A stretch of 64,000 bases of DNA, from IMG/VR virus record IMGVR_UViG_3300009080_000001, positions 1-64,000 of that record, one strand, 5' to 3'. Positions 1 through 15,884 of this stretch are shown piece after piece (position 1 is the first letter of the stretch; every line of letters begins with the position of its first letter). Made by a program: the position numbers and the translations under genes. A model generated the notes under the pieces. The model ran no database searches. It was not told where the DNA came from and was given only the letters and a program-made list of their open reading frames with translations. The stretch comes from a virus.

Positions 1-1792
1 CAAGTAAATCTTCACCATTAGGTCTGATTGTAACAGGAGTTCCAGAAGGATCTTGAATGATTAATACTTTCATATCTCCATCTGAGTAATTAGCGTCTGA
101 AGCGTCATAGTCAAATGAGATCGTAAGTTTCTTAGCAAGGTCTGCAGAGTCTACAGTAAAGTCAACATAAACTTGTTCACCTGAAGCATCAGCAGCAGCT
201 TTAGCAATTTGTAAAGAACCTAGTCCTCTTAATTGTCCAGAAGTAATTCTAGAAATAACTAGGTTTGTATCTCCAGTATATCCAGAGGTATCAACTTCAA
301 AGTCGCTGTTTTCGATATAGTTAATTGCAGAGCTAGGAGCTTTCGCTGATTCCCAATCCCCAGAACCTGAGTTGTAAGTTAAAACCTCACCTTCGTTTGG
401 TGCGGCAACTGAAACATCCGATAAATCATCTAAAGCAACTGTAGCTGCTTCTAACGTATCTACTCTTCCTTCAACTTCGTCGATTGCTGCTTGAGAATCT
501 GTAGCAGTTAATCCTGAAGTAGAATTGTCGTATGTTATATCAGTAGCACTTGTTGCGATATCTTTAGCTTCCCATCTAGAGTTACCGTTATCGTAAATTA
601 ATGCTTGACCATCTGTAGGAGATGGTGCAGATACATCAGATAATTCATCTAATACTACGTCTTGTCCAACTACTGCAGGTCTATATACTTTAACTTGTAA
701 TGTATTTGCATCCTCTACATAAAATAGTGGATTTGAAAATGAACTTGGTTCAACATTTGTAGCTTGTCCTGCAACAGAATCTGATTGAAAGTAAAACTCT
801 CCAACTGTATATCCATGAGCTGGTACTTCAATTCTTCCAAAGTCAGCAGCAATAAAATTATCTACATCAATTACTTCAACAATTGCGAAGTAAGCTAGAG
901 TATCTGCATCATCAGATTGAGCTTTTACCCAAGTAGTTCCGTTATGGTAAACACCTTCACCGACTGCAAATCCGTGAGCAACTTGTTCTATTTCAAAAGA
1001 AGTAGCTCCGCCTCCACCAATAGCTTGAAGTTCGTTATCTACAATTTGATACATCTTTTGAGTATCAGTAGCAAATACTATTTGACCATCAGCAGCAGAT
1101 CCAGCATATGTTTCTAAGTTAGCTTCTGTATCTTGCTTTACGTCTGATCTAGTAGGAGTCTCAATTGATCCTGATATTGTATTTGTGCTATCTAATGTTT
1201 TATTTTGTAATGTTTCTGTTTTACTTGGTAATGCGTCTATTTCCGTTTGAAGCTCATCTAAAGCTCCTTGTACGTCTGTAGCGATTAAGTTACCAGTTGG
1301 TACGTTAGATATTGCAGAAGCATCGTGAGCGTCTACAGCGTCTGCTAAGTGATCAGAAAGGCCTGTCTCAGCAGTATCTACTCTTCCTTCTACTTCGTCT
1401 ATAGCAGCTTGTACGTCTGTAGCTGTAAGTCCACTAGTAGAGTTATCATAATCTATCTCAGAAGCTTCATTTTGACCGTCTAAAGCCGTTTTAACAGCTA
1501 ATGCTGATGGTAGTTCAGTATCTGAAGTAGCAGTGCTTATATCAGTGATTAGAACGCCAGCTTTAAGATTATCTGTTTCTATATTTGAAATTGTGTTGTT
1601 GTCTGCGTCAATATCTTTATTTGTTACTGTTTGTACTTGATCTTCTGTTACGATTGATCTTTCAGCACTATCTACATACGCTTTAAATTTAAGCGCAGAA
1701 GGGTCTAATCTAATCTCACCTTCTAAAGTAGCTGCATCTGTGGAACCTTTTAACCTGATTCCTTTGGTAAATTTTCTGCTTTTAATTGCCAT
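1..1792 (-). CDS. Tail fibre / large virion structural protein, runs off the window edge
   Basis: ATG at 1792 (MAIKSRKFTKG...); same frame reads as protein at position 2. Internal repeats YDNSTSGLTATDxQAAIDEVEGRVDT and LxxLSDVxxxxPxxGxxLxY..W typical of fibre proteins. Absent from ORF track because it has no stop. Confidence 0.75.
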   Translation of the reverse strand, partial: MAIKSRKFTKGIRLKGSTDAATLEGEIRLDPSALKFKAYVDSAERSIVTEDQVQTVTNKDIDADNNTISNIETDNLKAGVLITDISTATSDTELPSALAVKTALDGQNEASEIDYDNSTSGLTATDVQAAIDEVEGRVDTAETGLSDHLADAVDAHDASAISNVPTGNLIATDVQGALDELQTEIDALPSKTETLQNKTLDSTNTISGSIETPTRSDVKQDTEANLETYAGSAADGQIVFATDTQKMYQIVDNELQAIGGGGATSFEIEQVAHGFAVGEGVYHNGTTWVKAQSDDADTLAYFAIVEVIDVDNFIAADFGRIEVPAHGYTVGEFYFQSDSVAGQATNVEPSSFSNPLFYVEDANTLQVKVYRPAVVGQDVVLDELSDVSAPSPTDGQALIYDNGNSRWEAKDIATSATDITYDNSTSGLTATDSQAAIDEVEGRVDTLEAATVALDDLSDVSVAAPNEGEVLTYNSGSGDWESAKAPSSAINYIENSDFEVDTSGYTGDTNLVISRITSGQLRGLGSLQIAKAAADASGEQVYVDFTVDSADLAKKLTISFDYDASDANYSDGDMKVLIIQDPSGTPVTIRPNGEDLL

Positions 1793-5104: not shown

Positions 5105-5425
5105 TTAGTTTTTTTCGTGTTTCTCTTGAGTATAATCTTTAGAGCAGATACCAAAAGTCCTGTCTCTAGATTCTCTTTTTAAATTTACTCCGAAAGATTC
5201 TAACTTAGATCTTGCTGTTCTTTTTAAAACATTTAGATTTGTATATTGTTTACTTTTAAAAACAAATTCTTTTGTTCTTTCGTTTCTGATACCATAGATC
5301 ATCTCTTCAAGGTTAAGTACTATTTTATATTTAGCACCAGTACGTTCTGATACATACTGGTTCAATGAAATAATGCAATTATCTTTAGTCGGATGATCGA
5401 CGTATCTAATCCTGTTTCCAGCCAT
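5105..5425 (-). CDS. Hypothetical protein
   Basis: 106 aa, coupled to portal stop. Confidence 0.6.
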   Translation of the reverse strand: MAGNRIRYVDHPTKDNCIISLNQYVSERTGAKYKIVLNLEEMIYGIRNERTKEFVFKSKQYTNLNVLKRTARSKLESFGVNLKRESRDRTFGICSKDYTQEKHEKN

Positions 5426-7533
5426 TAGCTACCGCCACTGTTCTTAGCCATAAGTTCGGCTGGATTAGTTGGCTGAGGAGGTAGTGTACCATCGCTTACT
5501 CCAGCAGGTTGAGCTGGTTGTGGTAAGTTCTGTGGTCCTAAATTAGGGTCCATCATCTGAGCTGGTCCACCATCAGGCATATTAGTTCCTGCTGGTTGTT
5601 GTGGAGCAGGAGCGTTACCTTGAGGTCCACCCGGCTGTTGCGGAGGTGGAGCTAGTGGTTGCTCTCCTATGATAGATAAAATATTCGGATCAGTAGTCTG
5701 TAATAAATTAATATGTTCTTGAATATGATCTAGTACCGATTGAACTAGTTCCGGATCTCTTCTTAGCATATAGTCAGAAAGTACTGATCTATGTTCTTTA
5801 ATATGTAATGAGTGATGGTCAGAGAATATAGCGATAACTTCTTCATCTCTTACTAGAGCTTCGTTCTCACCTTTAATAGTCATCATCTCGTCCATCTTAC
5901 CTTCAGTTAAGTAGTCAAGATTACCAGTATTCATAACCATTAAATATTTCTCAGGACTATCAATAAGTCCCATCTGTAAAAGGTTCTCTGCTACTTGAGC
6001 ACGACCTGCAGTAGTTTGCATTAATGCGTTTCCAACATCAACAACAACTCTGTTAATAGATTTAATATCGTCTGACTTAAACTCTTTCATTTCGGTCGAG
6101 TTATTTAGTCCGGAAATTGCAGCAATTCTAGGAACATTTGCAAAGTCTTTTAATAAGTTAATTAGTCCAGTTCCAACGCTTTCTAATAATTGAATATAAG
6201 ATTGCTGAAGTCCAGATACAAACTGTAATGCTTGTGACTGTACTAATGCTAATGCGTTACCTGATCTTAATGATTGTTCTGGATTACCTCTTGCAACAGA
6301 GTTTACACCAGAAAGTGTTTCCATAGTTTTCTCAAGAAGTGACATCAGTTGATATACTTCTGGAGATGTCTTTACTAAATCTAGAGGTTCTGGTTTACCC
6401 ATTCCCGGATCGTATTCAATAAAGTTCATACCTTCTGAAACCTGTTCAACAGAAACTCCGTTTCCTCTTGGGTTTAGAATGTTTACAACACCAAATGCGT
6501 TAACATTTGTTGCAGCCGTAGAATAGAGACTATTCAGCATATCTTGAAGTGGTAACAAATCAAACATGTCTGTATAGCCATATGGTGTTCCCATAATTTC
6601 ACTTGGAGTAATTCGATGCACTGGCAAGTCTCTATACGGCATTACGGTATCTTCCATGATAGCATCAGCGTCAGCATAAAGAACATAACGTCCATTAGGC
6701 ATTGACTCTGTTCGCTTATGAAAAAATTCATAAACTGGGATATCTTCGGTTTGTTCAATCGGGTGCGAAAGAACTCTCCTACTTCTTTTTTCTTGTTTAT
6801 CTTTTGTGTCTTGGCTTAACAGTTCTTCTGCAAGTTCTGGGTACTTGGCAGCTAAATCGAACTTGTTAATAAATGATCTACAAAGAACCCAATCGTTCTT
6901 CATATAATCTTCTTTCGTAACATCAAATACTACGTCAAATGGTGAGAGTAATGTAAATTCTACATCTCCTTCATAAATAGGAAAAGGTTTGAGTGTTTCA
7001 CCCTTCTCTCCTAAAGGTTCTCCGTCTTCATCATAGTCGTGGATGTCTTCTTCATCAACGTCAACATAGTCATAAATCTTGCCTTTGGTACTATTCCACT
7101 CTAATTTAATGTATCCTGAACCCAGAACAATGGCGTACTCTACGGCCTTCTTTATGATTGTCTCAAGCTTCATTTCACGCATGTAATAGTCCAGAAGTCC
7201 ATTTCCGAGTTCAGCTTGTAGTAGTGATTTTCTATCTGTATTGATAGCTCTACACTGGAAGCTAGGTCGTGTGCTTGTTACCATAACGTGAATATGTCGT
7301 GCTAAATTTCTATAGTGATTTACGGCTAAGTTTACAAGTTCACCTTGTTCTCCGCCTGTAGATAAGAAATGACCCTTACCATAGTATTGACCGTAATAAG
7401 CTTTCCAAGACCTTTTGATCTTGTCAATATAATCCGTATCCATAACACCTTTAAACCAGTGTTGTGACTTTCCGATCAATGTTTCTACGCATTTATCCGC
7501 TTTCTCAGCAGCGAAGTATTTCTCTCTACTCAT
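5425..7533 (-). CDS. Portal protein (P22-like)
   Basis: 702 aa after terminase; GSGYIKLEW, SPFDVVFD, LSGVNSVARG motifs; Pro/Gln-rich tail. Confidence 0.85.
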   Translation of the reverse strand: MSREKYFAAEKADKCVETLIGKSQHWFKGVMDTDYIDKIKRSWKAYYGQYYGKGHFLSTGGEQGELVNLAVNHYRNLARHIHVMVTSTRPSFQCRAINTDRKSLLQAELGNGLLDYYMREMKLETIIKKAVEYAIVLGSGYIKLEWNSTKGKIYDYVDVDEEDIHDYDEDGEPLGEKGETLKPFPIYEGDVEFTLLSPFDVVFDVTKEDYMKNDWVLCRSFINKFDLAAKYPELAEELLSQDTKDKQEKRSRRVLSHPIEQTEDIPVYEFFHKRTESMPNGRYVLYADADAIMEDTVMPYRDLPVHRITPSEIMGTPYGYTDMFDLLPLQDMLNSLYSTAATNVNAFGVVNILNPRGNGVSVEQVSEGMNFIEYDPGMGKPEPLDLVKTSPEVYQLMSLLEKTMETLSGVNSVARGNPEQSLRSGNALALVQSQALQFVSGLQQSYIQLLESVGTGLINLLKDFANVPRIAAISGLNNSTEMKEFKSDDIKSINRVVVDVGNALMQTTAGRAQVAENLLQMGLIDSPEKYLMVMNTGNLDYLTEGKMDEMMTIKGENEALVRDEEVIAIFSDHHSLHIKEHRSVLSDYMLRRDPELVQSVLDHIQEHINLLQTTDPNILSIIGEQPLAPPPQQPGGPQGNAPAPQQPAGTNMPDGGPAQMMDPNLGPQNLPQPAQPAGVSDGTLPPQPTNPAELMAKNSGGS

Positions 7534-8114: not shown

Positions 8115-9587
8115 CTATTTTTTTTCAAGTTTTAGCAGTTTCTTAATGAAATCAGCCGCTTGTGAGGCGTTTTTAGTCTTAAATTTAGGACTCATGAAGG
8201 TATTTTTGTTAATATCTAGTCCATAGTTCTCTGGAAACGGGTTTGTACCTAATCTTACGTTCCTAACTAAGTATATAAGCGCATCTAAAGCATCTCCATG
8301 TGATCTTAATAGTCCAGCAGAGTCGTTTCCTTTCAAATGCTTGAATTTACCTGTAAATGTTCCTTGTTTAGTATAGTGCCATTGAGTATATTTAAGATGG
8401 TATATAAGATTCTTACATCTTGGGTGTATTATGATCCTTTCAGATTCTACCCATCTTCTTACAGTATCAACAGCTTGCTCTTTATTATGTTTTTCAGTAG
8501 GCATGAAGTTCATACCATAAAACCTAGATAAATCGTTTATAAGCTTAAGGTCATTATCCATTACTCTTAAATAAGGCTTCTGCTTATCTCCGAGGGCCGT
8601 AACAAACCTCATCTCTTCTTTAACCATTATTTCTTTATGTAATTTGTCCGTTGTTAGTTCTGGACCATTAATAACGTATTCATCTGTAATTACTAGCTTA
8701 TTGAGCTTCTTATCATAGTACGAGAATAAGAATACAGTTAGATCGTGAAATCCAACATCTCCAGAGGTATAGAACTCACAATAATCTGGAACTTCCATAT
8801 CCTTAACTACGGACTCTTCTACGGCCGCAAATTCTGGGACTACGTTGGCTTCAGATACATTTGGAATCTCACACAAATACTCGCATCTAAATTTGACATT
8901 CTTCTCTCCACCCGGATACCTAGCTACAATCCTAGCTCTCTGCTCTTCAGAAACCATAGGCGATGTAGTGTAGTCAAACTTTAAAAGCTTTCCAGCAGCT
9001 TCTAGAGGGTTCACAAAGAACTCATGAAAGTCATGGTTCGGATCTTTGTCGTTTGGTGTGGATGCTAAATATATTTTACCACCAGTTGTATCGGTAGTAG
9101 GGGCAAGTACTGAATATACTACAGTCTCTAGCTCATCCATAAATCCTGCCTCATCACATATACATAAATCAGCCGATCCCCCACGGAGGTTATCGTAGTT
9201 TCCATTATCTGTACCTGCGACTTGTATTTCAGATCCATTAGGAAATAGCCACACCTTCTCTTGAGTCTTCCACTCCGGTTTCATATCCTCCGGACAGTTA
9301 GCTATGATCTCACGTATTCTAGGCTTTATAACCCTCTCAACCATTTTCTGTTGAGGACATGCATATTTTACAATAGCTCCGGGTTTTAGTAAGCAGGTTT
9401 CAATTGCCATAACACATAGAGTATACGACTTACCATACTGTCTGGATATCAGACATGCAGATATATCATCACCAGTATTGTTGAAATGTTTATAGATTTC
9501 TTTTTGATTACCCTTAAGTTTCCAAGAAAGTATACCTTCCCTCCAAAGAGCGTCAATTGCTTCTTCTTCGGTCATTTTCTTAGCCAT
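8115..9587 (-). CDS. terL: Terminase large subunit
   Basis: Walker A SRQYGKS, LRG..DLCICDEA Walker B, ASTP coupling motif, nuclease acidic residues (GDVG, DALDALIY). Confidence 0.92.
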   Translation of the reverse strand: MAKKMTEEEAIDALWREGILSWKLKGNQKEIYKHFNNTGDDISACLISRQYGKSYTLCVMAIETCLLKPGAIVKYACPQQKMVERVIKPRIREIIANCPEDMKPEWKTQEKVWLFPNGSEIQVAGTDNGNYDNLRGGSADLCICDEAGFMDELETVVYSVLAPTTDTTGGKIYLASTPNDKDPNHDFHEFFVNPLEAAGKLLKFDYTTSPMVSEEQRARIVARYPGGEKNVKFRCEYLCEIPNVSEANVVPEFAAVEESVVKDMEVPDYCEFYTSGDVGFHDLTVFLFSYYDKKLNKLVITDEYVINGPELTTDKLHKEIMVKEEMRFVTALGDKQKPYLRVMDNDLKLINDLSRFYGMNFMPTEKHNKEQAVDTVRRWVESERIIIHPRCKNLIYHLKYTQWHYTKQGTFTGKFKHLKGNDSAGLLRSHGDALDALIYLVRNVRLGTNPFPENYGLDINKNTFMSPKFKTKNASQAADFIKKLLKLEKK

Positions 9588-11633: not shown

Positions 11634-11706
11634 AATATACTGAATAATATTTTATTTGTCAAATACTATTTTAATCCTTGACAGTACTTGTACTAACTGT
11701 TATCTT
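11634..11706. promoter_or_regulatory. Divergent sigma70-type promoters
   Basis: Minus: TTGACA (11662-57)-17-TATATT. Plus: TTGACA (11678-83)-17-TATCTT with ATG at 11712 (likely leaderless). Confidence 0.7.
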
Positions 11707-11711
11707 AGAGT

Positions 11712-11915
11712 ATGGCTAGGAAAAAGAAGAAAAAAATAGTTGAGACTCTGGGTCACGTAGTTGTGGCTCAGATTCCCATGATAATAACATTTGACGAAGA
11801 TCATGTAGAATTTGTTGCAGATTATTTAGAATCGGCTATGAATAGATCCTACGAGATAATAGACATGTTTGGTGATCTAGGGGGAGATTTTGATCCATTT
11901 GACGACGAGGGGTGA
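11712..11915 (+). CDS. Hypothetical protein
   Basis: ORF directly after promoter. Confidence 0.55.
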   Translation: MARKKKKKIVETLGHVVVAQIPMIITFDEDHVEFVADYLESAMNRSYEIIDMFGDLGGDFDPFDDEG

Positions 11916-11983
11916 GAATTTAAGATGGTCCGATATTCAGACAGTACGACTTTAGAACTATATTTTATACCAAAGGAAAAGGT

Positions 11984-12433
11984 GTGACGGATAAACATAA
12001 CAGCTCTTCTTTAAATATAGATCACATTAAGCAAGTGACAGATAAACATAATGACTTCCTTATAGACATCAGAATGACTAGTTTCTACTATCCGGGCTAC
12101 GCTGCGTTCCCAGAAAGCTACGATTACGACTATCAAGAAGAGTTTTCAAAGGTTATTGAGGATTTTGCACTATTCTTTAGGGCAGATATGATGTATCTAA
12201 TGAATGGGAGGTATGAAAGATTTATAGCCGAAAAAGTGGACGAGGACTTCACAGACCTTATGTTAGATCCTAATTTATATCACGACCATTTCATAATTGT
12301 TAAGCCAAATAGACTAGCATATAAATTATTTAAAAAAGATATTCTTTACGTTTACGAAGAGGATGACCACTTTTTAGTGGCTAGTAGTCCGAACGCACAA
12401 CGTAAATTCAGGAAGTTAAGAGGTATAAAATGA
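11984..12433 (+). CDS. Protein with divergent TRLARK box
   Basis: VKPNRLAYKLFKKD near C-terminus. Confidence 0.55.
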   Translation: MTDKHNSSSLNIDHIKQVTDKHNDFLIDIRMTSFYYPGYAAFPESYDYDYQEEFSKVIEDFALFFRADMMYLMNGRYERFIAEKVDEDFTDLMLDPNLYHDHFIIVKPNRLAYKLFKKDILYVYEEDDHFLVASSPNAQRKFRKLRGIK

Positions 12434-12720
12434 AAGCAATAAAAGAATTATTCCTAATCTGCGACATAGAATCTGATGATAATTCAGTAGGTTGGAGACG
12501 TAGAAGAGATGCTATGGAGCAATGGGTAGAGAGGTATTTGTCTACGGTAGAGACTCAGCAAAGTGTATTAAATCCTAATGTTTTCGAATCAGAATTTATG
12601 GATTTTATTAAAGAGTCTATAGCAAAAAAGTTGGCTGAGGACTTGACAACCTCCACCAAATATGAGATAACTGATAAGAAGATAAAAGCTAAACTGGTGG
12701 TGTTAAATGGCAACAAGTAA
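12430..12720 (+). CDS. Hypothetical protein
   Basis: Overlapping start/stop coupling. Confidence 0.6.
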   Translation: MKAIKELFLICDIESDDNSVGWRRRRDAMEQWVERYLSTVETQQSVLNPNVFESEFMDFIKESIAKKLAEDLTTSTKYEITDKKIKAKLVVLNGNK

Positions 12721-12997
12721 TAGATATCCAATAGTTAGGCGTAATAATCTCAACGTAATGATAATTAGAACAGAAGGAAATGGTGACAATTTGGACTTTA
12801 TAAGCTTTGTAGAAACTGACGATGGTATTAAATATGAAGATACAAGTGGTCATAGAATGCCTTTAAAGGATATAATTATAGAATCTAATAGCGGAACTTT
12901 TGGCCTAGAGAGCGTTGTTAAAACTAGACTAGCAGAAAAAATGTGCAAGGTACTAGGGGAAACTGAGAACTATTATATTATTAAGGGAGAGCAGTAG
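12707..12997 (+). CDS. TRLARK-box protein
   Basis: VVKTRLAEKMCK at C-terminus. Confidence 0.7.
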   Translation: MATSNRYPIVRRNNLNVMIIRTEGNGDNLDFISFVETDDGIKYEDTSGHRMPLKDIIIESNSGTFGLESVVKTRLAEKMCKVLGETENYYIIKGEQ

Positions 12998-13203
12998 TGG
13001 GAATGGGAACTATAAGAGTACCTAGAGATGAAGAAATACCTATATACAAAACGGTAAATGATACTAGGCTCGCTCGTAAAATGTTCCCGGATTTTACTGA
13101 TAATAAAGATGGAACCTTAAGAATAATAACTGGTTACGGACCGGAGCCTGTTATAGTAGGTTCAGAAAAGGGATTTACATATATAGGAACGCCAAAAAAA
13201 TGA
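12997..13203 (+). CDS. TRLARK-box protein with capsid-like peptide
   Basis: VNDTRLARKMFPD followed by EPVIVGSEKGFTYIG. Confidence 0.75.
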   Translation: MGMGTIRVPRDEEIPIYKTVNDTRLARKMFPDFTDNKDGTLRIITGYGPEPVIVGSEKGFTYIGTPKK

Positions 13204-13469
13204 GAATACCACCAAGAGCTAAGAAATCACAAGAGATTATAGACCAAATGGTTAACTGGTTGAACTATTATATGGGAACTAGGCCCGAATTTAAGGACTT
13301 TATCAGAAATGATATCAAATACTTAGAAGAATACCTATCAGAAATTAGTGAAGAGCATAAAGTTCACAATATTAGATTTGCTACTAAGTTAAAGAGTCTT
13401 TGGAAGTGGGAATTAGAGGAAAAAGAAAGAGAAATCAAGCAATTAAAGGCGGAATTGGATGAAAAATAA
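13200..13469 (+). CDS. Hypothetical protein
   Basis: Coupled ORF. Confidence 0.6.
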   Translation: MRIPPRAKKSQEIIDQMVNWLNYYMGTRPEFKDFIRNDIKYLEEYLSEISEEHKVHNIRFATKLKSLWKWELEEKEREIKQLKAELDEK

Positions 13470-13950
13470 GAAAATAGGTCAGGGATTAGGGACACAGATC
13501 GATGAAAGGTCAGGAAACGCTAGAGCTTTGGCTATGTCGCAACAATTACAGCAAATGGGAAACCTTTCTGGTCAGACACAATTAGATGTTCTTTACCAAA
13601 AAAGAATGGCTGAGTATGAGAAACAAAAAATGGAATATGAAAATCAAAAAAGACAACATGAGATGGTAAAAGAAGAAGCACTTAGTAGATTAGACGAAGT
13701 ACTAGAAAATTCTGGAATACCACTAAAAGGATCTGATTATTTTAACATATATACCGATATATTCACAGAGGTAGACGCTATAAGATGTTTTGGTAAGAAT
13801 TATAATCCTAAAGAGGTTTTTAATGAAGTATTTACAAAGTATATGAATAATAACTACGATGAAATAACAGATACTAGGCTGGCAAGAAAGATGTATCCAG
13901 ACGCTAGGCCTAATAAAGACGGTAAGTTATACGTGAAAAAGGAAAAATAG
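13459..13950 (+). CDS. TRLARK-box protein with portal-like peptide
   Basis: RSGNARALAMSQQLQ near N-terminus; ITDTRLARKMYPD at C-terminus. Confidence 0.75.
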   Translation: MKNKKIGQGLGTQIDERSGNARALAMSQQLQQMGNLSGQTQLDVLYQKRMAEYEKQKMEYENQKRQHEMVKEEALSRLDEVLENSGIPLKGSDYFNIYTDIFTEVDAIRCFGKNYNPKEVFNEVFTKYMNNNYDEITDTRLARKMYPDARPNKDGKLYVKKEK

Positions 13951-14235
13951 TTGAAAAATAAGCGTAGAATAGAAATATACCCAACAAATAGAATGGCAGA
14001 ACACGTAATACGAGAATTCCACGATAAGAATGCGGAATTCGTATCATTCTTCGACCTTGGAATGAAAACACTATGTTACAAAGGCACATATATAGGATTC
14101 AGAGGTGAAACATACTCCAGAAGACTAGAAGGTTTACAGTTTGATGAGCTATATGTCCACCCAGATTGTAAATATAGGGGAGTTTATATCTCAAGAGCTA
14201 TTGACAACGGTGCAAAGATAGTGTATAAAATATAA
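13951..14235 (+). CDS. Truncated terminase-ATPase-like protein
   Basis: YPTNRMAEHVI ... LEGLQFDELYV ... GAKIVY parallels TerL motifs. Confidence 0.5.
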   Translation: MKNKRRIEIYPTNRMAEHVIREFHDKNAEFVSFFDLGMKTLCYKGTYIGFRGETYSRRLEGLQFDELYVHPDCKYRGVYISRAIDNGAKIVYKI

Positions 14236-14248
14236 AAGGAGTTAAATA

Positions 14249-15055
14249 ATGATAAAAAGAGATATAAATATGTTAGAGTATCTATGTAAAGTTAGCCCAA
14301 AAGAATTTACAAGAAAAACGAGAGAAAGCGGGCCTATAAGAACATATTTCTACAGAAAATGGATATATTCTCCGATGGGAGGTTTCGAAACATGGGACAC
14401 AATGGCAGAAGTTAATCTAGAAAAATATAAAGTTACATACTATAACGGATGGGGGAAGAGGTAAATATGAAAAAATTTAAAGTATTATGGGAAGAGAGAG
14501 TTGAGAAATCTGTGTGGATTGAAGCCTCCTCTGAAAAAGATGCTGTAGAAAAACACAATGAAGGCGAATATAGTAATGACTCAGTAAATGAAGAGTGGTT
14601 AGGATTCGACGACTCTTACGTTGTAGATAGCAAGGATATAGAATAATGTTCGACTATATGGTAAAAGTACTGCCGAACGGTAACTTATTAGTGCGTGACA
14701 GCCATTCTAAGACATCCGAGGCTATTAAGGCAAGTGAGATATCGGATTATTTCCAAAAGGCTTTAAAAGAGCAATTAGAGGCTGAGAAAGAGAATGACCA
14801 GAAACATAAGGATGTTCGAGAGGGAGCCTTTAAATTATGAAAAGAATAGAAAAAATGATGACATACAGGAATGATCCGTATTCTAATAATATAATAGAAG
14901 ACGATTATCAGTTAGTAGGTATAGATTATATAGTCTCTGCTTGGAATTGGGACCACTCTAAATCAAACGACGAATATTACTGTGTAAAATTAGCTCATTT
15001 TGGAAGTATTGTCCACATAAAGAAGGAAGACCTAGATAAAAAGGTAAAAAAATGA
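14249..15055 (+). CDS. Four small hypothetical ORFs (14249-14464, 14467-14646, 14646-14840, 14837-15055)
   Basis: Tightly coupled ORFs with RBSs. Confidence 0.55.
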
Positions 15056-15381
15056 ATAAAACATATACAAGAATGCAAAAACAAGTAGTTAACGACACTA
15101 GGTTAGCTAGGAAGATGTATCCAGACTTCACTGATAATGAGGATGGTACTATCACAATTGAGGTTGAAGTAATCTCAGACGGATTCGGGTCTGGTGGTAT
15201 ATTGACTGCTACAGACGTACAAGATGCAATAAATGATATGCTGACCAAAGGCTTTGCTGCGCCATCAGAAATCATAGTAAACCCTAAACAATACGCAGAG
15301 TTACAGAAGTTAATAGATCCAGATGACATGGATATTAAGGTTAGTAACTACTGTCCTGATGACAAGGTATATATAAAATAG
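15052..15381 (+). CDS. TRLARK-box protein with capsid-like fragment
   Basis: N-terminal VNDTRLARKMYPD; IVNPKQYAELQKLID. Confidence 0.75.
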   Translation: MNKTYTRMQKQVVNDTRLARKMYPDFTDNEDGTITIEVEVISDGFGSGGILTATDVQDAINDMLTKGFAAPSEIIVNPKQYAELQKLIDPDDMDIKVSNYCPDDKVYIK

Positions 15382-15884
15382 GAGAATAAGTAGTGGGAAT
15401 AGCTGTAGGTATATTGTTAATAGTTAATATGTTTTGGATAATGCCGACATTATATAGAATTGAGAAGTTATTGGAGAGAAAATGAAAGGACATTACGAAG
15501 ACGATACTGACGCAAAGAGATTATTATTAACTATATTCTGTGTAGCCGCTATTTCAGGGCTATTAAGCGCATTTATTTATTAGGTGTATTATGATTGAAA
15601 ATGTTATTAAAAATATTTGGATTACAACTAGGATATTAGCTGGAGCCTTGACAATACTGGCGGCTATTAATCTATCAAATCAAGATATAATAGGAACATT
15701 ACCATTTATAAGTATTATTATATGTGGATTCTTTACAATAGCTAAACAACATGATTAGGTGTATTAACATAAATATACCCATATCTGTTTTCTGACACTA
15801 CTTTGACCAATACAACTGACTTAGAACCACATACCCCCCTACCCCCTAAATATATTTTGTTTACATAGAATATACGCACCTATC

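Follow-up and report, generated by a model that had tools for sequence, protein, structure and literature searches.

A candidate catalytically dead look-alike of the terminase ATPase core encoded in an uncultured marine phage genome

TerL, the large subunit of the phage terminase, is among the chief activators of the bacterial Avs1-3 and Upx defences. Phages also encode small proteins that resemble TerL, a known but young class recognised only between 2024 and 2026. KpAvs2 is activated by two of them, Ksap1 (74 residues) and Ksap2 (Bas60_220) (Bechon et al. 2024, PMC11564622). Ksap1, Ksap2 and vs.8 of phage T4 are similar to the TerL ATPase, with predictions placing them in the Avs2 pocket (Evans et al. 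2026, bioRxiv 10.64898/2026.04.30.721860), and the authors of that study suggest that they may be anti-defence proteins which Avs2 has learned to see. Upx, according to the same work, is predicted to bind unfolded strands of the ATPase core by beta-augmentation. The known anti-Avs proteins ORF55 (a ligase) and ORF83 (DprA-like) are no TerL mimics. Here we describe a gene at positions 13951..14235 (+ strand) of a 64,000-nucleotide (nt) window, taken from the start of an 84,758-bp IMG/VR virus record (IMGVR_UViG_3300009080_000001) with direct terminal repeats and 34% G+C. Its 94-residue product, hereafter the mini protein, is best placed, as a sequence orphan, in the loosely defined group of stand-alone look-alikes of the TerL ATPase, of which it is the most stripped-down kind.

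The mini protein shares with its closest known counterparts, Ksap1, Ksap2 and vs.8, a small size, a non-terminase identity, a predicted TerL-ATPase-like fold and a narrow taxonomic range. Like vs.8, it would be a stand-alone TerL-ATPase fold outside the packaging module; vs.8, which is toxic together with EcAvs2, keeps Walker A and Walker B and detectable sequence homology to gp17 (bioRxiv 10.64898/2026.04.30.721860), whereas the mini protein has neither. For the Ksap proteins, binding and activation of Avs2 have been shown, while the mini protein is known here from its gene and predicted fold. Ksap2 (bas60_0220, 111 residues) is encoded between nrdA and nrdB, the class I ribonucleotide reductase alpha and beta genes of the coliphage Bas60 (Escherichia phage PaulScherrer, MZ501100; L008:24605-24940, - strand), whereas the mini gene lies in a probable early block. 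What is new to the class is that the nucleotide site is lost completely, that sequence methods do not see the protein, that its lineage is marine and that a neighbouring gene carries a portal fragment. NrdI-type flavodoxin-like proteins hold similar positions in nrd operons, and for this reason the TerL-like fold of Ksap2 might equally reflect a flavodoxin-like accessory role in ribonucleotide reduction.

The open reading frame (ORF), which an earlier note on this DNA had picked out as a miniature terminase ATPase look-alike, is present on the + strand with the peptides quoted there, and it is a real gene under selection. It opens with TTG immediately after the stop codon of the upstream gene and ends with TAA; a putative Shine-Dalgarno-like site, AAGGA (13939..13943, +), lies 7 nt before the TTG within the 3' end of the upstream gene. 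A search covering 5.8 billion proteins yielded three close relatives, each 94 residues long and 69-84% identical. Two distant ones of 91-92 residues (identities 38% and 31%) came from HMMER, run exhaustively on 1.84 billion representatives, and a viral-contig scan contributed three further ones at 32% identity. These eight relatives, of 91-94 residues and 30-84% identity, come from related uncultured phages, and no longer or fused relatives were seen among the candidates scored. About nine protein clusters carry the family, compared with 428 for the TerL of the same phage. In the three relatives at 32% identity, genes for 71, 149, 103, 94, 88 and 155 residues precede the mini gene in a shared order. 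The ratio of nonsynonymous to synonymous substitution rates (dN/dS) against the 84%-identical relative is 0.107 (dS 0.83, dN 0.088), and this relative has ATG at the codon where the present phage has its TTG start. The gene also recurs, identical with zero differences, in contigs of four other marine metagenome DNA runs; no RNA run was among those listed for the sequencing runs checked. Residues I9, Y10, P11, A16, F50, G61, E66, Y68, H70, P71, R76 and K93 are invariant in all nine sequences. A chance ORF or a decaying fragment with no function, as the TTG start and the lack of a database family for the product might suggest, is highly improbable given the low dN/dS, the ATG start in relatives, the conservation of length and motifs down to 30% identity in synteny, and the confident fold prediction.

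An initial AlphaFold2 (AF2) model built from 4 sequences reached a predicted local distance difference test score (pLDDT) of 65, and a second, template-free model from 9 sequences reached a pLDDT of 80.1 and a predicted TM-score of 0.73. The AF2 model comprises a strand (4-10), a helix (13-27), three strands (31-35, 39-43 and 46-52), a short helix, a strand (66-69), a helix (76-85) and a last strand (89-91). When the pLDDT-80 model was searched against the PDB with Foldseek, TerL ATPases made up eight of the ten top chains (E-values 6.6e-3 to 2.8e-2, query TM-scores 0.58-0.67, probabilities 0.99-1.0). The leading TerLs were those of D6E (5oea, 5oe8, 5oe9, 5oeb) and T4 gp17 (2o0h, 2o0j), followed by P74-26, HK97 and full-length gp17, with GTPases ranked below them despite their far greater number in the PDB. 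The best matches in BFVD were likewise TerLs (E-values 2.9e-4, 6.3e-4 and 9.3e-4; query TM-scores 0.67-0.75). Language-model features gave a separate lead, in that the nearest Pfam-bearing clusters of the ESM Atlas all consisted of short fragments of TerL ATPases (Terminase_6N in 25-27% of members, Terminase_3 in 30-52%, GpA_ATPase in 100%), with scores of 0.84-0.88 that fall under the 0.9 line. Among the 48,161 representative chains searched with VIA-align, TerLs scored 6.8 (D6E), 6.2 (gp17, 181..286), 6.0 (Sf6 gp2, 42..146) and 5.8 (P74-26, 58..178). The refuting outcome that the earlier note had named, a predicted fold unrelated to terminase ATPase domains, was thus not obtained, with TerLs leading in two of these searches and standing high in VIA-align, nearly tied there with Toprim and GTPase chains. 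On the strength of the model, the fold is probably TerL-ATPase-core-like, at twilight-zone scores with which generic P-loop and Rossmann-like folds nearly tie.

Membership of the mini protein in the small GTPases or the Toprim domains was ruled out by motifs, since neither a P-loop after the first strand with an NKxD or DxxG motif, as in small GTPases, nor a Glu after the first strand with a DxD after the third, as in Toprim, was found in it. In BFVD, over 20 uncharacterised proteins of 95-140 residues, from phages of Gordonia, Mycobacterium, Arthrobacter, Pseudomonas and Bacillus and from uncultured siphoviruses, fit the model about as well as the TerLs do (target TM-scores 0.45-0.64); small proteins with such a fold may thus form a wide class that has no name yet.

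The TerL of this phage is a 490-residue protein encoded at 8115..9587 (- strand), with Walker A at S48-S54, Walker B at D145-E146, the C-motif at 176-178 and a nuclease domain (Pfam Terminase_6N, 4.3e-9; Terminase_3C, 2.8e-6). All four TerL peptides with which the earlier note had paired the mini protein occur in it in the order given. A profile of its clade matches T4 gp17 at an E-value of 2.5e-8, placing gp17 N181 at TerL 67 and gp17 T286 at TerL 176. Superposition puts residues 1..94 of the model on gp17 181..286, which by this HMMER map corresponds to TerL 67 to 176. In the alignment made by eye in the earlier note, residue 1 of the ORF stands at TerL 68 and residue 94 at TerL 176, and an identical placement is given by hhalign. 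Against a profile of diverse TerL ATPases, 24 sequences with identities reaching down to about 24% that were gathered by a viral-contig scan, the top alignment at default settings lies in this same register, with ORF 9-71 on TerL 76-146. It pairs P11 with P78, M15 with M82, G45 with G118, I48 with I121, G52 with G125 and G61 with G136, and sets H70-P71 opposite D145-E146; with -mact 0 it lengthens to ORF 1-94 on TerL 68-176. Its score of 17.1 (P 0.036) was equalled by 5 of 200 column shuffles, the reversed profile reaching 9.2, so that the match appears statistically marginal and informative as register. Because the model is template-free and the three methods agree in register, this agreement is the strongest single argument for a real TerL resemblance.

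On this alignment, residues 4-20 (13960..14010, +) hold the first strand, ending in the invariant I9-Y10-P11, and the start of helix 1 (M15, A16), and they correspond to TerL 71-87, that is beta2 and its helix with the invariant P78; strand 4-10 matches the 'AIVKYAC' of beta2. Strands 39-43 and 46-52 match the TerL hairpin 'KVWLF' and 'SEIQVAG', the latter within residues 45-52 (G-T-Y-I-G-F-R-G; 14083..14106, +), which face 'GSEIQVAG' at TerL 118-125. In residues 59-71 (14125..14163, +), G61 faces G136 of the TerL 'RG' motif, the strand E66-V69 matches the Walker B strand 'LCIC', and the invariant H70-P71 follow at the Walker B position. Residues 86-94 (14206..14232, +) carry the last strand, K89-V91, which corresponds to TerL 171-174 ('KIY', just before the C-motif), and the protein ends where the C-motif S176-T177-P178 begins. 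When compared with TerL ATPase domains of known structure (T4 gp17, 2o0h and 3cpe; D6E, 5oe8; P74-26, 4znl; Sf6, 4idh; HSV pUL15, 6m5r), the mini protein as modelled would follow TerL in the order and geometry of its strands and helices between beta2 and the strand that leads to the C-motif, and the conserved Pro after beta2, the hairpin-strand Gly and the 'RG' Gly coincide in the alignment. It differs in its length of 94 residues, compared with about 250 for the TerL domain, in the absence of the Q motif, P-loop, C-motif, lid and nuclease domain, in having His-Pro in place of the Walker B Asp-Glu, and in showing no significant sequence or Pfam match.

The catalytic elements of a terminase ATPase are accordingly missing, as the earlier note had held in calling the protein probably inactive. 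No GxxxxGK[ST] motif occurs in the 94 residues, and the alignment begins at TerL 68, past the Walker A helix S48-S54, leaving out both the P-loop strand and helix and the N-terminal adenine/Q motif region. The Walker B acidic pair is replaced by the invariant H70-P71; a D65-E66 pair does exist 5 residues upstream, and it sits at the N-terminal start of the strand, opposite to the end at which a Walker B pair would stand. The C-motif is not encoded, since the last residue, 94, already stands opposite TerL S176. With P-loop, Walker B pair and C-motif all absent, binding or hydrolysis of ATP is ruled out, and the mini protein must act by binding; by no defining catalytic feature is it a member of the TerL family. 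Judging from the secondary structure, the invariant Y10-P11, H70-P71, R76 and K93 would lie at the C-terminal ends of the parallel strands, and we infer that the face equivalent to the ATP-site face of TerL may be conserved for a new purpose.

Several results weigh against a TerL relationship, and most of them come from sequence comparison. The best BLASTP match of the mini ORF to TerL has an E-value of 0.17 and lies off the register described above, and Smith-Waterman scores against 500 shuffles gave z-values of 0.3-1.3, with 11-35% of shuffles scoring as high. No terminase family was detected at E<=10 when the nine family members were searched against Pfam and PHROGs. The narrow profile of the phage's own TerL clade aligned off-register with hhalign (score 19.7, P 0.021, probability 2%), and since an off-register alignment scores equally well, hhalign scores of 17-20 must be regarded as near noise. 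Added together, the four blocks matched by eye reach a raw BLOSUM62 score of 51; the highest-scoring one has 24, with 5 of 11 identities, compared with 33 for the best chance high-scoring segment pair. The likeness in motif order claimed by the earlier note therefore stands in its register, which recurs as the top profile alignment and in the superposition of the template-free model, and fails in the pairwise tests, which are null. Taken alone, the sequences reveal no link between the mini protein and TerL. On the structural side, all fold searches topped by TerL use one model from a shallow alignment (effective number of sequences about 2.3), while the pLDDT-65 model retrieved flavodoxin, DJ-1 and Rossmann folds first, with the D6E TerL at rank 10. 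In VIA-align, topoisomerase III Toprim chains (7.5 and 7.3) and small GTPases (6.4-6.8) are statistically tied with the TerLs. In addition, the 'RG' arginine is poorly kept, residue 60 being R in four of the nine family members and E in this phage.

These observations can be accommodated by a generic small three-layer alpha/beta protein of the flavodoxin- or Rossmann-like type, unrelated to TerL, whose resemblance would be convergence on a common fold. In such a protein Y10-P11, H70-P71, R76, K93, E66 and Y68 would form a ligand or partner site of its own, for instance for a phosphate- or nucleotide-like molecule. The ranking obtained with the weaker model and the null or marginal sequence tests fit this explanation, as does the apparent clustering, deduced from secondary structure, of invariant polar residues where such folds bind their ligands. 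It accounts less well for TerL ATPases ranking above thousands of GTPase and Rossmann chains in the PDB and heading the BFVD list, for a single register reached from structure, profile and eye in which invariant Pro and Gly columns coincide, for named ESM Atlas neighbours that are all TerL fragments, and for the portal fragment in the neighbouring gene; we consider it an unlikely but serious contender. A third explanation keeps the TerL-like fold and gives it another task, that of a packaging-motor modulator docking on TerL (the phage's own or a competitor's), TerS or portal in the place of a motor subunit, thereby delaying, poisoning or redirecting packaging. The fold does retain the strand and 'RG' region that face the neighbouring subunit in TerL rings. 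R139 of P74-26 TerL is the trans-acting finger, and the invariant R135 of the TerL 'RG' motif would by analogy be the same; an R139A mutant of P74-26 TerL is deposited as PDB 4znj, according to its title. Small TerL-binding inhibitors also have a precedent in Gpi of the Vibrio satellite PLE, which interferes in this manner with the TerL of ICP1 (bioRxiv 10.1101/2024.04.22.590561). Both would be small proteins acting on the packaging motor through binding. Gpi, however, is encoded by a satellite, binds TerL and stops packaging, and it has not been described as resembling TerL, whereas the mini protein is phage-encoded and known from its gene and model. Given the variable 'RG' arginine (E in this phage), a gene position in a probable early block distant from the late packaging functions, and the little obvious benefit to a phage of inhibiting its own motor, such a modulator is improbable.

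Weighing these points, we regard the proposal as a whole, a catalytically dead look-alike of the TerL core that would work by binding, as having about an even chance of being right, and descent of the mini protein from a TerL as an evenly balanced question. In the mechanism we envisage, an accessory gene in the first + strand block, probably expressed early, would yield a 94-residue product of beta-alpha-beta3-beta-alpha-beta order whose fold would be the scaffold of the TerL ATPase core, TerL 68-176, from beta2 to the strand before the C-motif. This product would act as a structural look-alike of monomeric TerL. Its most likely partner, by analogy to Ksap1, Ksap2 and T4 vs.8, would be a host TerL sensor of the Avs1-3 or Upx type, towards which it would be a competitor or decoy, or might itself be recognised as a trigger. 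The portal-derived segment in the neighbouring gene is counted as context for reading the protein as a TerL look-alike. An action on TerL-sensing immunity nevertheless seems doubtful. Avs2 and Avs3 read the TerL ATP site, EcAvs2 through a bridging ATP on the gamma-phosphate (10.64898/2026.04.30.721860), and the absent ATP site would thus argue against a TerL-style recognition by either; it would be compatible with a Ksap-like engagement of a C-terminal sensor or with strand capture of the Upx type. What is known of Ksap1 and Ksap2 is that they activate rather than inhibit. Finally, hhalign of the family alignment against Ksap2 (Bas60_220) gave a probability of 0.3% over 7 columns, that is, no similarity. 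A wider and still less probable scenario is an early 'self-mimic' battery, in which trimmed copies of the phage's capsid, portal and terminase, all encoded by the operon, would each occupy the matching Avs- or Upx-type receptor and keep it from oligomerising. Such a battery would blind the sensors of the core phage proteome, the P-loop-less TerL scaffold being its anti-Avs1-3/Upx part.

Considering the role of TerL in triggering immunity, the mini family would represent an extreme case, an ATPase-core scaffold from which every nucleotide-binding element has been removed and which lies beyond sequence search. It would also be a clean tool for two questions, namely whether TerL sensors are engaged by a look-alike that has no ATP site, and whether the outcome is that they are blocked or triggered. 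If the modelled fold is right, as it probably is, TerL look-alikes extend to marine phages far from the studied coliphages and are detectable by structure-based screens only.

Other comparisons were tried and set aside. An hhalign run against a single TerL aligned 13 columns, D65-G77, with the nuclease-domain segment 'ERIIIHPRCKNLI' at a probability of 9%, which we attribute to chance since the model fits the ATPase and shows no RNase H match. This chance match sets the most conserved motif of the family, E-x-Y-x-H-P-x-C-K (14143-14181), against the conserved nuclease strand 'ERIIIHPRCK' at TerL 383-395 (8403-8441, - strand). A family hidden Markov model run against 109 TerLs reached a maximum of 12.9 bits, off-register and only somewhat over shuffled sequences. 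When the family profile was searched against PDB sequences, only Cas9 was retrieved (E-value 0.26), near its HNH motif and with the catalytic register not matched. A tblastn search of the mini protein against 50,697 phage records and a megablast search of the block around the gene each returned no match.

The mini gene belongs to a tightly packed + strand block (11712-15760) that diverges from the packaging genes and is probably transcribed early. A sigma-70-like promoter match, TTGACA-17-TATCTT with TG (11678..11706, +), precedes the block in a consensus scan only. The immediately upstream gene (13459..13950, +) encodes 163 residues, with a TRLARK box at the C-terminus and a segment of 20 residues derived from the portal. 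Its stretch 13507-13566 shows 12 of 20 ungapped identities to residues 423-442 (6208-6267, - strand) of the portal protein, which is encoded at 5425-7533 (- strand) and matches Pfam P22_portal. The maximum among shuffles was 9 (n=30), and BLASTP with composition adjustment did not report the segment. The description of the mini gene as abutting a portal mimic and itself devoid of a box is hence borne out, the 163-residue ORF ending at 13950. In the 84% relative (L007:333-876, L006) the 163-residue gene is missing and the mini gene stands directly after an 89-residue gene, whose stop codon its ATG overlaps; the mini gene and the 163-residue gene are therefore no obligate pair. The 71- and 65-residue genes found downstream of the mini gene are also missing from this relative, from which it can be deduced that the accessory genes of the block are gained and lost independently.

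Several homologues of the phage's TerL (P0025, P0029, P0062, P0115, P0121 and P0122) are 630-846 residues long and contain intein/LAGLIDADG domains (PF14890, PF14528), indicating that the TerL ATPase of related phages is a target of intein invasion. The TRLARK box, (V/I)x(D/N)TRLARKM(Y/F)P... followed by DG.L.I, occurs in about 19 copies in + strand ORFs between 13063 and 53066 of the window, for example at 13063, 13873, 15097, 29250, 30868, 33686, 36885, 37652, 40830, 41509, 42624, 46085, 49753, 50961 and 53046. It mostly occupies the final 25 or so residues before the stop codon and sometimes the N-terminus. In distant relatives, a degenerate form of the box (DLAKFMYPDHKVSSDGFIYVKK) ends the gene upstream of the mini-TerL homologue.
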